Source: a virus. Taken from it: a stretch of DNA of 64,000 nucleotides. The stretch lies in UHGV virus genome UHGV-0312702; one strand, written 5' to 3'. The notes under the pieces were generated by a model. That model was not told the origin of the DNA. It did not search any database and worked only from the letters and a program-made list of their open reading frames with translations. The first letter of the stretch is position 1, and every line of letters starts with the position of its first letter. This document shows, piece after piece, positions 14,503-28,703 of this stretch. Made by a program: the position numbers and the translations under genes.

Positions 14503-14763
14503 ATGAAAATTGAACACTGCTATGAGTCTGACGGAGCACCTATCCGTTGTCCACATTGTGGATGTACAGACTTACAAGGTGAGGTAAGTGAAATAGTCAA
14601 CGGTCATATTGCTGAAGAGAGTACAAGGTGTACAGGGTGTAGTGAAATTATTGCTTTCTGGGCTTATGGTTCATACCAACCAGCACCACACTTAATCTAC
14701 CATAGCAATAAAGCTGTGAAAAATGTTATCAACTGGTTCATTAAGAAAGGGTTTACAAAATGA
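14503..14763 (+). CDS. zinc-ribbon protein
   Basis: CPHCGC...CTGC motif. Confidence 0.4.
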   Translation: MKIEHCYESDGAPIRCPHCGCTDLQGEVSEIVNGHIAEESTRCTGCSEIIAFWAYGSYQPAPHLIYHSNKAVKNVINWFIKKGFTK

Positions 14764-15305
14764 TTAAATTAATCTTTGCAAGTGGTGAAAATGGTGAGTT
14801 TGGTACTCCAACTGGTATGCCGTGGCCTCGACATAAACAGGACATGCAAGAGTTTAAGAGACTCACTAAAAACAACTTAGTAGTGATGGGTAACGAGACT
14901 TTCAAGACTCTGGGGAATAAGCCTTTACCAGAACGTGCAAATCTCATCTTAACAAATTCTGTACCATATCTAGGCATAGACTTTGGCAAAGATGATGTGA
15001 TGTATGCTAAGGCCACTAAAGAGTCATTTGGAGCATTTTTGAAGTATCTTGATAGCTCTATTGATGAAGATGTCTTTGTAATTGGTGGTGCAGGTGTACT
15101 TGTCAATGCTTTACCGTATGCTGATGTAGTGTTCCATACAGTTTTCCATAAAGTTACTGAAGAGGCCACTGTGCATTTACCTTTTGAAAACTTCTTCGAT
15201 AAACTGTATGATAGCCGTGTATTTGCAAAGGTTCAGTCAAGACCATCAGATGATGGTAAAGCAACCTTTGAAATTTATGTTCCACAAGTAAAAGGACACT
15301 TTTGA
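14760..15305 (+). CDS. dihydrofolate reductase
   Basis: IFA...MPW...VVMGNETFKTLG...LILTNS pattern typical of DHFR. Confidence 0.85.
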   Translation: MIKLIFASGENGEFGTPTGMPWPRHKQDMQEFKRLTKNNLVVMGNETFKTLGNKPLPERANLILTNSVPYLGIDFGKDDVMYAKATKESFGAFLKYLDSSIDEDVFVIGGAGVLVNALPYADVVFHTVFHKVTEEATVHLPFENFFDKLYDSRVFAKVQSRPSDDGKATFEIYVPQVKGHF

Positions 15306-15306
15306 T

Positions 15307-16206
15307 ATGTCACAAGCAGATACAAGTTACAAAAATATCCTGAACCATGTTTTATCCGTTGGTGAACTGCGTACTACACGAACTGGAGATGTTATCTCTG
15401 CATTCGCTCCACCTAAGTTTCGTTTTGATATGAGAACTGGTTTCCCGCTCTTAACATCTAAACAGGTGTTTACACGGCAAGTTATTGGGGAAGCTTTATG
15501 GTTCCTGAACGGAGAGAATAAGCTTGGTGAACTCCGTTACCGTACTTGGGGTGAAAATGACGGAGAACGCTGGACTATCTGGTCAGATGATTTTAAACGC
15601 TGGTTAAGCTCTAATTATTCTTCTGAACAAGATTGGTTAGAGGATGCAGGTGGAAGAATCTATGGGGTTCAGTGGAGAAACTTTGAAGGTCATAATGGTT
15701 GTGTTGTAGACCAACTAGAGACCTTAGTAACGAAGATGAAGGGTGATATCACAGACCGTTACATGCTTGTTAATGCTTGGAATGCAGCAGATATTGCAGC
15801 AAACTCAATGGCTTTAGCACCTTGTCATGTTCTGTTTCAGATTTATATCACTAATGAGGGTGAAGTTGACTTACAATGGTATCAGCGTTCGGTAGACACC
15901 TTTTTAGGACTTCCATTTAATATTGCATCTTATGGTTTTATTCTGGAAGTTCTTTGCAAGATGACTGGATACACTCCACGATACTTGATAGGTGTCTTTG
16001 GGGATACTCAGATTTATCATAACCATATGAAGCAGGTTTATGAACTGATGAACAATCAAGAGTTCCATGCACCTACTTTTGAGATTGGTGTGCAGCTTAA
16101 CACACTAAGTGACCTTAAACATCTTACTGCAAGTGATTTTATTGGTGGTATTAACAACTACCAACACGCAGGGAAGATTGAAGCACCTCTGTCAGTAGGT
16201 AAGTAA
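15307..16206 (+). CDS. thymidylate synthase
   Basis: catalytic LAPCH motif and NAWNAAD motif; directly follows DHFR. Confidence 0.85.
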   Translation: MSQADTSYKNILNHVLSVGELRTTRTGDVISAFAPPKFRFDMRTGFPLLTSKQVFTRQVIGEALWFLNGENKLGELRYRTWGENDGERWTIWSDDFKRWLSSNYSSEQDWLEDAGGRIYGVQWRNFEGHNGCVVDQLETLVTKMKGDITDRYMLVNAWNAADIAANSMALAPCHVLFQIYITNEGEVDLQWYQRSVDTFLGLPFNIASYGFILEVLCKMTGYTPRYLIGVFGDTQIYHNHMKQVYELMNNQEFHAPTFEIGVQLNTLSDLKHLTASDFIGGINNYQHAGKIEAPLSVGK

Positions 16207-16214
16207 AAACAAAA

Positions 16215-16245
16215 AAGGCTCCCGTAAAAAGGAGCCTTAAAATTT
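16215..16245. terminator. bidirectional intrinsic terminator between convergent genes
   Basis: AAGGCTCC-cgtaaaaa-GGAGCCTT hairpin flanked by A/T tracts. Confidence 0.6.
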
Positions 16246-16889: not shown

Positions 16890-19451
16890 TTAAGCAGTTC
16901 TTACCCAAGCCATTAACTTGTAGAACTGGTTAGTAACACTAAATGCTGAACCAGAACCTGTACCACCAGTGTTACCACTAACTGTATGAGTGTGAGCACC
17001 GATACCTACAGAGTGGGTGTGAGCACCAGTGTTGCTTGTAGTACCAGACCATGTGTGTGTATGGTTACCAGTTGTGTTAGTGTTAGGGAACTTGTTATCA
17101 GTTCTGTCAAGCCAGTCAAGAGTCCTTGTCTTATTGTTACCAACTGTTGTATAACCGTACAAAGCATCACCACCATTAACTAATAACAAACCTAAGTGGT
17201 GAGCGTGGTTACCAGCAGCACTTGTTGTACCACTTACAGTGTGAGTATGACCACCAGTGCTATTAGTGCTCTTCGTACCATAATCAAAAGATGAAGTGGT
17301 AGCAGAAAAGCTGTGAGTGTGTGATGGTAAGTTACCAACAGCTAACGTCACAGAATCTGAACCACCTGTTGTAGCAACATCTGAACCATTTGCTGCTGCG
17401 ATTCTGATAGTTCTACCAACACCATTATTCAGGTACGTCCAAGTTAACCCAGGCAACGCTGTGTTAGGGTCAACATTGCTGTTAAACCATGTCACAATAC
17501 CTACTGGATAGATTTTATTAAGGTCTGTAGAGTCACTTACAGCCTGTGCAATCTTCTGGTCAGTCTCAGCTTTAGTATATGCACCAATATCTGAAGGGGT
17601 TGGTTTCAAGAGACTAGTATAATAATAAGCAATTGTCCCAGCAACATAGTCAGATGGAGCACTGTCAGATGTCTCTGGGATTTCAAACAGTTGTACTGTT
17701 GCGTTATCTGATGACTGAACCCTAGCTGTCGTAGCGTTTTGGTAGTTACCAGCTTTGCAATAGATATCATAATTATCGCCAGATGTATTAACATACCCAA
17801 TTTCCATCACAACACCATTCGGTGAGTTTTTCCATGCAACAACATTTAATCCTTTTGGTTTACCATTCCCTGCTCTAATAACAATCTCTGTTTTACATGC
17901 TTGGTCAGGCGTATTATAGTTGAACCCAGACCCACCAAACAGCTCAATTACCGCTGTCGATGTTGCCTGCGGCATAGTAACAGTTGCAATCTTAGCCCAT
18001 TTAGTCACACCATTAGTGTTAAAGCCAGCACTTCTTACCCTCAGATACCTATTATCAGCAGATGATTTGTTGTAGTATCTCCCATCAATGTTAGTCCAAT
18101 CAGAAGGTTGAACTTGACCAGTGATTCTAACTGTTTTGTTCAGTAAGAAGTCATCCTTCATGTAAATGGTAGTAGCAGTCCTGTCATTGTGGATAATGAA
18201 CCTTTCTGGGTTGCTTGGTTCCCCATTACCGATATACCACCTTCTAACACCATCAGCATTAAAACCAGCAAAGTATAACTCCCTGTCTTGTGCAGTATTC
18301 CTTAGTTGTAACAATAAGCCATTTTGATTAATAATCTGTGCAGACCTGAAATTGTTTACATCACTTAGCTTAGCAAGATTACTCAAAGTAGCTGCTGGGA
18401 TATATCTAGAGTCAATGTTAGCCCAATCAGAAGGTTGAACTTGACCACCAATTTGGACTGTTCTACTCATGGTAATGGTGTTACCTAGTGAGATTTGTGT
18501 TTTTGCTAAATAGTTATAGATGTTTACAATATTCTCATCACCGTCATTACCAATGTACCACTTATTAGTTCCGTCTGACTTTCTTGCTTGGATATACAAA
18601 GCCGCAGTTGTATCTACATTTTGAATAGTAATAGCATTAGCATTCTTCTTAATAACAAAATTAGTGAAAATATTAGAACCACTAAAAGTATTATTGCCAG
18701 CTAACTGTGCAAATCTCTGATTAGCAACTGTCTGAGTAAAATATCTAGCATCTAGGTTAGAGAAATCAGAAGGTTGAACTTGACCAGTGATTCTTAGTGT
18801 TTTATTGATAGCAATGTCGTTAGCAAGATTAACATATGCACCGGTCTTGTAGTTGGAGATAGTAACATCATCACTCCCTGAACCATTACCTACATACCAC
18901 CTATTATTACCAGCACTATCCTGACCTCTGATATACAACGGTGAGTTCTCAGAAGAGTTTTTTACCCTAAGAGCTTCACCATTTGCTTGGATAATTTGCT
19001 GGAAGGTGAAGATGTTATTTGCCGTTAATCTTGAGTATCTTGCATCATTCTCTTCATTAGTTCTCATCCCAAGTTCATTAGGGCTTGGTTTATTCAGAGT
19101 GTGATAAACAGTTGCTGACCTTGAAGCATCTGCAATAGTCAGTTTAAGACCATTTGCATTGATTTTAAAAGTCTTTAAAACATCCCCAATATTAATCTCA
19201 GAAGAACCTGTTGGGTTAAATACTACCTTACCACCATAAAGTAACTTAACAATCCCTAAGTCACCCGTCATAGTGCTACCAGCAATCTGAACAAATCTTT
19301 CAAGTTTAAAAGATGCTAAGAAGTCTTGATAGGTCATTCGACGGTCTTCATCACCAAGCATTTCAGGTCTCTTTTTAACTCTGACATGAAGAAGGTCGTC
19401 TGAACGGATTGTGTCGATTGAGTTTAATTCACTCAACTTGTAATCTGCCAT
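16890..19451 (-). CDS. tail fibre protein with internal repeats and His-x-His C-terminal tip
   Basis: three [10 protein letters not shown](x)N(I/L)D(x)RY modules; C-terminal GNHTHT/GAHTHS/GAHTHT repeats. Confidence 0.7.
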
Positions 19452-19497
19452 TATAAATTTTCCTCTAAAAAGGGGCTATAAAGCCCCTGTAAAGAAA

Positions 19498-20685
19498 TTA
19501 AGCTGTTCTCTGCCATACATACAGTACGAAGGATGGCTGCTCAATGTTGAAAGCTTGTCCACCACCAACACTATTAGTGTTCCCGCTATGCGTATGTTCA
19601 GAAGAAGAAACTGTTACAGTACCATTATGTGTATGCGAGCCAATACCAACTGTGTGGCTGTGAGCACCAATACCTACTGTATGGTTGTGGTTACCAGTTG
19701 TGTTGGTTGTGACACTGAAAGAGTGTGTGTGTGCACCAGCGACTTCACAGACAGCATCTGCTGAGTACCATGATTGGTCATTCCTTGTAGACCAAACCAT
19801 TGCAGGTCTTTCCGATAGACCACCACCTGCTTCATATGTCAATCTGTGGTTGTGAGCACCAGCAGTACTTGTTGACCCACTACCAACATGGTTGTGGTTA
19901 CCTGTTGTGTTAGTAGTCTTTGTTCCATAATCAAAAGAGTTGGTAGTCTTAGCTCCATAGTCAAAAGCTGAAATTGACACAGTTGCATTATGAGTGTGAG
20001 CACCACCACTAAGAGATACAGAGTGGGAATGCTGAGGCATATTATTAACTGACAAAGTAACAGTTGAAGCACCAAATACAGAACCTGCTGGTCTTGTGTC
20101 AGAGTCATAACCAACCAATGCTCTACCCTTTGAAACTAACTCCCAAGTACCTCCACAAATTAAATATGTAGAAGGGTTTGCAGAGTTCATAGAAAGATGA
20201 ATAGTACCTACCGGATAAGAAGCCTGAACAGCCTTGTACAAGTTATTTACTGCTCTTGCTGTAGCATACTTATTTGCATCTTCATTATAAAGGTCAGATG
20301 TTGTCCAGTTCTGAACATTACTTAAGCCAACCTGTGCCTTAGTTGTATTGTGTGGGTTACTCTTGTCCTTGATATGTTGTTGGACAAGATTATTAACCTC
20401 TTCTGAAGACATAATCTGTAGATTTGCTCTTGCTTCAGCCACATCAACAATATCTGATAAGTTATTTGCAGCGACTAACTGGAGAGCATTAATAACATTA
20501 TCTAAACCAATTTGTGTTTTAGTAACACCATGAGGGTTGTTTCTTAGGCTTGAGTGTGGAGCAAGTAATTGCTCAAGAGTACACCTTTTATCCTCAATAC
20601 CCTGCTTAAGATGGAAGATATCGCTAAGGTCAATTGGTAAGGCTGCTTGAGGCAAGGCACTAATTTGAATTTCACCTACTGCCAT
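19498..20685 (-). CDS. tail fibre protein with His-x-His C-terminal repeats
   Basis: NPH..TK.Q.GL.NV collar-like repeats; C-terminal GNHNH/GAHNH/GAHTH/GSHTH motifs. Confidence 0.65.
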   Translation of the reverse strand: MAVGEIQISALPQAALPIDLSDIFHLKQGIEDKRCTLEQLLAPHSSLRNNPHGVTKTQIGLDNVINALQLVAANNLSDIVDVAEARANLQIMSSEEVNNLVQQHIKDKSNPHNTTKAQVGLSNVQNWTTSDLYNEDANKYATARAVNNLYKAVQASYPVGTIHLSMNSANPSTYLICGGTWELVSKGRALVGYDSDTRPAGSVFGASTVTLSVNNMPQHSHSVSLSGGAHTHNATVSISAFDYGAKTTNSFDYGTKTTNTTGNHNHVGSGSTSTAGAHNHRLTYEAGGGLSERPAMVWSTRNDQSWYSADAVCEVAGAHTHSFSVTTNTTGNHNHTVGIGAHSHTVGIGSHTHNGTVTVSSSEHTHSGNTNSVGGGQAFNIEQPSFVLYVWQRTA

Positions 20686-20687
20686 TA

Positions 20688-28703
<8,016 letters not shown>

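Follow-up and report, generated by a model that had tools for sequence, protein, structure and literature searches.

Two neighbouring tail fibre genes in the virus genome UHGV-0312702 encode proteins that both end in arrays of His-x-His (HxH) motifs. We asked whether these arrays form metal-stabilised needles at the fibre tips and whether the two proteins make up one fibre or two. The DNA analysed, hereafter the window, is 64,000 nucleotides long and carries the two genes next to each other on the minus strand (Table 1). One open reading frame (ORF) specifies a long tail fibre (LTF) protein of 853 residues and the other a short tail fibre (STF) protein of 395 residues. From their similarity, we identify the LTF as the orthologue of gp27 of Escherichia phage JohannRWettstein (Bas63; MZ501086) and of Felix O1 gp77, and the STF as the orthologue of Bas63 gp26 and Felix O1 gp76. 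The window very probably encodes two separate trimeric fibres, each with a metal-stabilised needle tip of the phage T4 gp37 type and a swappable receptor-binding head. This conclusion is built on the two fibre genes, their homology to gp37, the register of the motifs, their paired length variation, the pattern of conservation and the gene order.

The LTF contains six HxH motifs (at aa 711, 735, 749, 797, 811 and 820), five of which have the form GxHxH, and 13 of its 16 histidines are found within aa 711-822. Nine motifs are present in the STF (at aa 219, 230, 264, 278, 319, 333, 342, 351 and 364), with the form GxHxH in seven cases. The chance expectation was obtained from 5000 composition-preserving shuffles of each protein. 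Shuffled LTF sequences had a mean of 0.29 HxH (maximum 3) and shuffled STF sequences a mean of 1.39 (maximum 7). Because the shuffles never reached the observed counts of six and nine, we conclude that the arrays are not an accident of composition. The original prediction, made from the DNA sequence alone, had described four to six repeats of G(N/A/S)H(T/N/S)H in the C-terminal ~80 residues of each fibre. The arrays themselves were confirmed, but within the last 80 residues this strict pattern occurs only three times in the LTF and four times in the STF (seven in total), and the arrays are longer than proposed, covering the final 143 residues of the LTF and the final 177 of the STF. Both arrays are bipartite, with 3+3 motifs around a 44-aa His-poor insert in the LTF and 4+5 motifs around a 38-aa insert in the STF.

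The C-termini of both proteins are homologous to the tip of T4 gp37 (PDB 2XGF, residues 785-1026). In phmmer searches, 2XGF matched aa 706-832 of the LTF (E 2.1e-20) and aa 145-367 of the STF (E 1.5e-26), and a profile of 56 homologues matched it with an E-value of 4.1e-33. The identity between aa 718-825 of the LTF and residues 898-994 of gp37 was 54.6%. We aligned the tips of LTF, STF and T4 gp37 with one another. The needle of gp37 has HxH motifs at residues 883, 915, 929, 966, 980, 989 and 998 (#1-7). All six LTF motifs are in register with gp37 #1-6, and #7 is absent; the STF has a counterpart for each of #1-7 plus two extra motifs, at aa 230 and 364. FDYGTK units on the ascending strand and IGAHxHTV units on the descending strand are common to gp37 and the window fibres. 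In gp37, the seven motifs coordinate seven iron ions, one each, on the three-fold axis, and a small receptor-contacting head marks the point where the chain turns back (PMC12609058, PMC11705849, both citing Bartual 2010). The window tips have the same order of collar, two HxH half-arrays and intervening head, and in both cases the C-terminus returns to the collar end. There are six HxH layers in the LTF and nine in the STF, compared with seven in gp37. The heads are longer in the window (44 aa in the LTF and 38 aa in the STF between the flanking histidines, versus 33 in T4), and their sequences are unrelated to that of T4. A kinship of the HxH arrays with the tip of the T4 long fibre, as had been suggested, was thus borne out, and homology and register likewise support a needle-like tip, for which metal binding is predicted by homology.

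The lengths of the half-arrays provide additional information. The HxH motifs of the ascending and descending strands span 46 and 32 residues in T4 gp37, 59 and 45 in the STF, 38 and 23 in the LTF, and 24 and 9 in LTF variants with 2+2 motifs. The ascending span exceeds the descending span by a steady 14-15 residues while both spans vary. This constant difference fits a chain that doubles back as a hairpin, since both arrays must then change length together.

To follow the motifs among relatives we used a comparative set of 28 related loci recovered from IMG/VR. Two fibre genes stand in tandem at all 28 loci where the contig allows this to be seen. The STF has nine HxH motifs at 24 of the 28 loci and seven at the rest, which are without those at aa 264 and 278; the LTF has four to seven. 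Invariant HxH columns are those at aa 219 and 230 and all five of the descending strand in the STF (27 distinct tips), and those at aa 711, 735, 811 and 820 in the LTF (24 distinct tips). Most relatives also retain the head-proximal columns, and LTF motif 797, like 749, is lost in five. In a wider set of 56 homologues, which extends to identities as low as 31%, it is mostly the G and H of the HxH motifs that form the invariant or nearly invariant columns.

The original prediction had also likened the tips to that of the T4 short fibre protein gp12. T4 gp12 is a trimeric fibre with an axial metal held by HxH of the three chains; it has one Zn2+ site with an HxH motif, and its collar-type domain is related to gp10 and gp11. 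In the window, a collar domain of the gp10/gp11/gp12 type is found directly before the needle. The Pfam family Gp10_C matched LTF aa 645-759 weakly, and a Gp10_C match to the collar had an E-value of 8e-19. Among the PDB matches for the LTF, the STF or the family profile there was no gp12 chain, even at E <= 1. Of the two T4 comparisons, the one with gp37 therefore held, with matches to 2XGF and motifs in register, and the one with gp12 found no sequence support. Furthermore, gp12 has a single metal site and not an array; the short fibre of the window is 'short' by position only, and its tip is of the gp37 type. The gp12 analogy appears to be functional at most.

Some observations weigh against our conclusion. 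Folding of T4 gp37 requires gp38 and gp57A. A tblastn search of the 64-kb window for a gp38-type chaperone gene, which did not cover gp57A, found none (E 0.09), and the LTF gene, unlike its T4 counterpart, is not followed by a gp38 homologue. Because a gp38 homologue is missing from the window, fibre assembly must differ from that of T4 in some respect. A monomer AF2 model of the STF tip was mediocre (pLDDT 68, with the head below 50). For Bas63, the density of the fibres was too poor for modelling side chains (PMC12609058). Moreover, no solved structure offers a counterpart for the STF motifs at aa 230 and 364.

The most durable alternative, which we nevertheless regard as unlikely, accepts the gp37-like fold but assumes that the HxH sites hold another metal (e.g. 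Zn2+ as in T4 gp12) or are partly occupied, and that the extra STF motifs and the collar-proximal LPxHxH are structural only. Sequence cannot distinguish Fe from Zn, and STF motifs 230 and 364 have no equivalent in 2XGF. In addition, ascending HxH motifs are replaced by (Y/F)DYG units in three relatives (L018, L021 and L022) and in Bas63 gp26, and since some relatives carry such units instead, individual HxH sites are dispensable. However, all nine STF positions are retained at 24 of the 28 related loci, and the seven T4-matched motifs are aligned, at 36-55% identity, with residues proven to be Fe ligands. As for the two additional STF motifs, their repeat context (GGAHTHN and SSEHTHS) is that of the others.

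The reading with a gp37-type metal needle on each protein is thus preferred, and it leaves the question of whether the two proteins belong to one fibre or to two. In the cryo-electron microscopy study of Bas63, the STF gp26 is bound to the wedge and the LTF gp27 to the platform, as separate trimers, and each protein ends in a collar, a needle with HxH and a head (PMC12609058). Because the Bas63 orthologues are separate trimers, we consider the two window ORFs to be two distinct fibres and not parts of one. Each has its own tip, the gene order is the same as in Bas63, and the N-terminal parts are closely similar (STF aa 1-135, 96% identity to gp26; LTF aa 1-134, 96% to gp27). The earlier proposal of two distinct fibres that share a tip design agrees with these results. 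A single composite fibre of the T4 gp34-gp37 kind, with the two proteins as its proximal and distal halves, is very improbable. The two genes are adjacent and co-oriented, and GenBank labels both products just 'tail fiber protein', but a conserved N-terminal part and a complete collar-needle-head tip are present in each protein separately, and the window encodes both the platform protein and wedge protein 1. A composite fibre is also contradicted by the Bas63 virion, in which the separate trimers occupy different baseplate sites (PMC12609058). The window tips would thus sit on single-protein fibres (853 or 395 aa) bound directly to the baseplate, whereas the T4 tip is carried by the distal subunit of a four-protein fibre.

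Least credible of all is the view that the His-rich repeats are a compositional by-product without a specific role, or an iron bait for siderophore receptors ('Ferrojan horse'): the tip is rich in G, S, T and H, and such a bait has been proposed for marine phages (PMC11705849), but the shuffles do not attain the HxH counts, the H and G columns are invariant over the 56 homologues while adjacent columns vary, the T4 ions are buried on the axis and not exposed, and Felixounaviruses depend on lipopolysaccharide (LPS) and not on siderophore receptors (PMC8594841, PMC4690856).

For two needle-tipped fibres we propose the following mechanism, in which the trimer geometry, the occupancy and identity of the metal, and the receptor are predictions. 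The predicted placement of the histidines for coordination follows from the in-register homology, at 36-55% identity, to a crystal structure and from the AlphaFold and cryo-electron microscopy interpretation published for the orthologues. Each protein would trimerise into its own fibre. The STF would bind the baseplate wedge, and the LTF would bind the platform protein of 100 aa, whose gene lies immediately upstream of that for the STF and which is the predicted attachment point of the LTF on the baseplate. At the tip, the chain would form a globular collar, an ascending strand along the fibre axis, a small head at the far end and a descending strand back. The needle of the trimer would be six-stranded because each chain runs out and returns. 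The HxH motifs of both strands would point to the three-fold axis, where six histidines from three copies would hold one metal octahedrally; in the T4 needle this metal is Fe2+ (PMC12609058, PMC11705849, both citing Bartual 2010). Up to six ions could be accommodated in the LTF needle and up to nine in the STF needle, and they would rivet the thin needle together. The His-poor inserts of LTF and STF are the predicted receptor-contacting tips. As heads, they would contact the receptor on the host, which, as in other Felixounaviruses, would most likely consist of LPS core sugars; dependence on the LPS core has been described for Bas63 (PMC8594841) and VpaE1 (PMC4690856). For the T4 head the receptor is OmpC/LPS, while the reported dependence of Felixounaviruses is on LPS.

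The head segments are the least conserved parts of both tips. Identity to the window residue was 0.24-0.36 at STF aa 281-320 and 0.27-0.42 at LTF aa 741-800, compared with 0.9 in the N-termini, and among the relatives the head segments fall into many unrelated types. The heads of the window and of Bas63 are likewise unrelated (29% identity across the head segment in the STF and 14% in the LTF). The window's own STF and LTF heads are unrelated to each other, and two unrelated heads would give the phage two specificities, which we predict to be independent. The head may be exchanged between phages as a cassette, and the conserved His-box DNA flanking it probably provides the recombination sites. 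His-box recombination is known in T-even phages.

Two observations among the relatives concern the movement of heads. In two IMG/VR loci (L005 and L009), the head of the LTF and the adjoining needle are nearly the same in sequence as the head of T4 gp37 (IEAWNGTG.GG.KMSSYA.SYR.GGSNTNAAGNHSHTFSF), and the tip is 72% identical to T4 gp37 over 144 aligned residues, compared with 49% for the window LTF. This looks like an exchange of receptor-binding heads between phage families. In three other IMG/VR loci (L013, L014 and L019), the STF head is the same as the LTF head (GGRYGGDSIGGKQRVQVSGTNQ.SS; about 24/25 identical in L013). We conclude that copying has occurred between the two fibre genes of one phage.

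From the paired spans and the shared heads we derive a more tentative idea, which in our estimation falls somewhat short of an even chance. Needle length may be tuned in quanta, with one HxH unit on each strand, ascending and descending, being gained or lost together, and the flanking His-box DNA may be a portable recombination site that moves heads between the two fibre genes of a genome and between phage families. If quantal tuning were true, the metal array of the window STF, with nine predicted metal sites, would be longer than those of T4 gp37 and Bas63 gp26, with seven each. These ideas extend known concepts and do not describe a new kind of system; the Bas63 study already remarks that the number of HxH motifs may scale with needle length (PMC12609058).

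Similar tips are widespread. The STF tip was matched by 863 database proteins at E <= 1e-5, including prophage side tail fibres. Many side tail fibres of lambdoid prophages and other enterobacterial phages carry PF07484 (Collar) and PF03335 (Phage_fiber) and bear HxH motifs like the STF tip. In contrast, the N-terminal parts of the lambdoid-prophage fibres and their attachment to the virion are unlike those of the window fibres. The LTF showed a marginal match to PF03335 (21.9 bits, cut-off 20).

The shaft of the LTF is modular. The baseplate-binding domain, a function known from the Bas63 study (PMC12609058), probably lies within its conserved N-terminal segment (aa 1-134), as presumably it does within aa 1-135 of the STF. 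This LTF segment is followed by three tandem rod modules, which the original prediction had described as three ~110-aa modules repeated in the DNA about every 335 bp. Each module alone matched PF20744, with 94.3, 51.8 and 66.8 bits (E 4.7e-27, 8.6e-14 and 1.8e-18) against a Pfam gathering cut-off of 21.7 bits. The conserved DNA cores of the modules recur at 327/339 nt and 321/339 nt. Over their whole length the modules share 36-41% amino acid identity and 52-56% nucleotide identity. The modules are therefore confirmed, whereas repetition at the DNA level holds only for the short cores (65-79% identity). Tandem Repeats Finder called no ~335-nt period in the LTF, and we attribute this to the DNA identity of only 52-56%. 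A hidden Markov model (HMM) built from the modules found exactly three copies in the window LTF and in Bas63 gp27, and no further diverged copies were significant in LTF, STF, T4 gp34 or T4 gp37. Because no extra copies were found, sequence comparison does not reveal all of the 'five beta-helix domains' described in the Bas63 paper. PF20744 is named for gp37, yet T4 gp37 did not match it and instead matched Collar, Phage_fiber and, weakly, Gp34_trimer. As T4 gp37 itself fails to match, the name is misleading for comparisons with T4.

Behind the rod modules lies a variable mid domain, which has two unrelated forms among the relatives: a long form, present in the window, and a form that is ~60 aa shorter (L001, L002 and L006). 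A part of LTF aa 386-635 is 33-39% identical to a part of Tequatrovirus gp37, and the likeness to T4-type distal fibres thus extends beyond the tip. The LTF is a mosaic of cassettes: the closest relatives of the three rod modules are not those of the mid domain (aa 469-600), and those of the head differ again. This mosaic, with its long and short mid domains, accounts for the length of the window LTF, 853 aa, compared with 792-795 aa for the LTFs of the phages with the most similar STF.

The STF contains a 30-nt tandem duplication at 19909-19967 on the minus strand (aa 240-259), with two copies that are 86% identical (Tandem Repeats Finder). It encodes FDYGAKTTNS/FDYGTKTTNT on the ascending needle strand. 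The STFs of relatives carry two to four FDYG-type units, and an equivalent pair is present in T4 gp37. In the STF shaft, the motif NPHxxTKxQ(I/V)GLxNV(I/Q)N occurs twice, at aa 49-66 and aa 109-126 (20488-20541 and 20308-20361, minus strand). Through the region of this shaft motif, the family profile matched three stretches of a chain of PDB 9zd7, 'short tail fiber gp92' (E 3.8e-15).

Bas63 and the window phage share three PF20744-type LTF modules and collar-needle-head tips with HxH on both fibres, with six HxH in each LTF. Our HxH counts on the Bas63 sequences (seven, and six with HHxH at 692/693/695) match the published counts exactly. The STFs differ, with nine motifs in the window (4 ascending, 5 descending) and seven in Bas63 (2+5, with YDYG units on the ascending strand instead). 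The LTFs differ in length (853 aa versus 784 aa), the mid domain of the window being of the long form. Both LTFs have an extra histidine at the head-proximal motif, as HxHH (749/751/752) in the window and as HHxH (692/693/695) in Bas63.

That both Felix O1 fibres resemble gp37 at their C-termini has been in the literature since 2010 (PMC3185647), and a 2015 paper reported the same for VpaE1 (PMC4690856). The Bas63 paper (Sci Adv 2025) gives the numbers of HxH motifs (7 and 6), compares the motifs with 2XGF and points out that both the tips and the LTF repeat domains vary (PMC12609058). As the Felix O1, VpaE1 and Bas63 papers precede our analysis, the window tips represent the correct reading of a feature that is already known for Felixounavirus and not a new one, and as a discovery they add little to the published gp37 similarity (2010, 2015) and collar-needle-head tips (2025) of the genus. 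Specific to the window are only the combination of head types, the nine-motif STF needle (the common variant in the genus) and the long-form LTF mid domain; the HxHH in place of HHxH is a further difference in detail from the published Bas63 model. The tips matter because they decide which bacteria the widely used FelixO1-type phages attack, and a head cassette within a conserved, probably metal-riveted scaffold shows cut-and-paste points for re-targeting such phages.

The sequence similarity of the region identifies it as the tail-fibre pair of a Felixounavirus (FelixO1-like myophage). Megablast returned 241 matching records, which are Felixounavirus genomes (phages of Escherichia, Salmonella and Shigella). 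The best record had 93% identity at a query coverage of 82%, broken into several pieces, and the flanking baseplate genes are 92-96% identical to those of many Felixounavirus phages. The order wedge 2 (489 aa), wedge 1 (285 aa), platform (100 aa), STF (395 aa), LTF (853 aa), two small ORFs, thymidylate synthase and dihydrofolate reductase (DHFR) is colinear with Bas63 gp23-gp31. The coordinates of the fibre genes, their domains and their neighbours are given in Table 1.

Table 1. Fibre genes, fibre domains and neighbouring genes, with positions in the window
Feature	Residues or length	Position	Strand	Remarks
DHFR		14760-15305	plus	
Thymidylate synthase		15307-16206	plus	
Small ORF	123 aa	16245-16616	minus	N-terminal hydrophobic segment, then coiled coil; PHROG 4038
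Small ORF	64 aa	16617-16811	minus	hydrophobic; function-unknown PHROG 402; directly 3' of LTF
LTF gene	853-aa ORF	16890-19451	minus	PHROG 4277 'tail fiber protein' over full length, E 0
LTF needle descending strand and C-terminus	aa 795-853	16893-17069	minus	HxH 797, 811, 820; align with gp37 #4-6
LTF head insert	aa 753-794	17070-17195	minus	position of T4 gp37 head; identity to relatives 0.27-0.42
LTF needle ascending strand	aa 706-752	17196-17336	minus	HxH 711, 735, 749 (749 as HAHH); align with gp37 #1-3
LTF linker and collar	aa 601-705	17337-17651	minus	aligns to gp37 collar 811-861; 87-94% conserved in relatives
LTF variable mid domain	aa 469-600	17652-18047	minus	identity to relatives 0.19-0.34
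Three tandem LTF rod modules	aa 135-468	18048-19049	minus	each a PF20744 'gp37_trimer' domain
LTF rod module 3	aa 360-468	18048-18374	minus	
LTF rod module 2	aa 247-359	18375-18713	minus	
LTF rod module 1	aa 135-246	18714-19049	minus	
LTF conserved N-terminal part	aa 1-134	19050-19451	minus	identity 87-94% across 25 distinct LTFs
STF gene	395-aa ORF	19498-20685	minus	PHROG 2097, E 4.8e-136
STF needle descending strand and C-terminus	aa 317-395	19501-19737	minus	HxH 319, 333, 342, 351, 364; first four align with gp37 #4-7, aa 364 extra
STF head insert	aa 281-316	19738-19845	minus	least conserved STF part, identity 0.24-0.36
STF needle ascending strand	aa 214-280	19846-20046	minus	HxH 219, 230, 264, 278; duplicated FDYGxKTTN unit
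STF collar domain	aa 136-213	20047-20280	minus	
LTF platform protein	100 aa	20688-20990	minus	phmmer match to PDB 9ndy_S (Bas63 gp025), E 3.1e-64, full length
Baseplate wedge protein 1	285 aa	20990-21847	minus	phmmer match to PDB 9ndy_J (Bas63 gp024), E 1.9e-181

Both small ORFs 3' of the LTF gene are kept in Bas63, as gp28 and gp29. PHROG and Pfam scans of the two returned only function-unknown families and coiled-coil noise. They are located where T4 has the chaperone gene gp38 and then the holin, and they have no similarity to gp38. At ~16210-16245 the strand switches: the minus-strand structural module stops, and the plus strand takes over with thymidylate synthase and DHFR, an arrangement shared with Bas63. 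The GC skew flips sign at the same place. Outside the fibre genes, a baseplate central spike or puncturing-apex protein of 207 aa (23738-24361, minus strand) has a single HxH, H188/H190 (FNEHTHHYY), at the same residue numbers as the probable iron site at the spike tip in the Bas63 paper.

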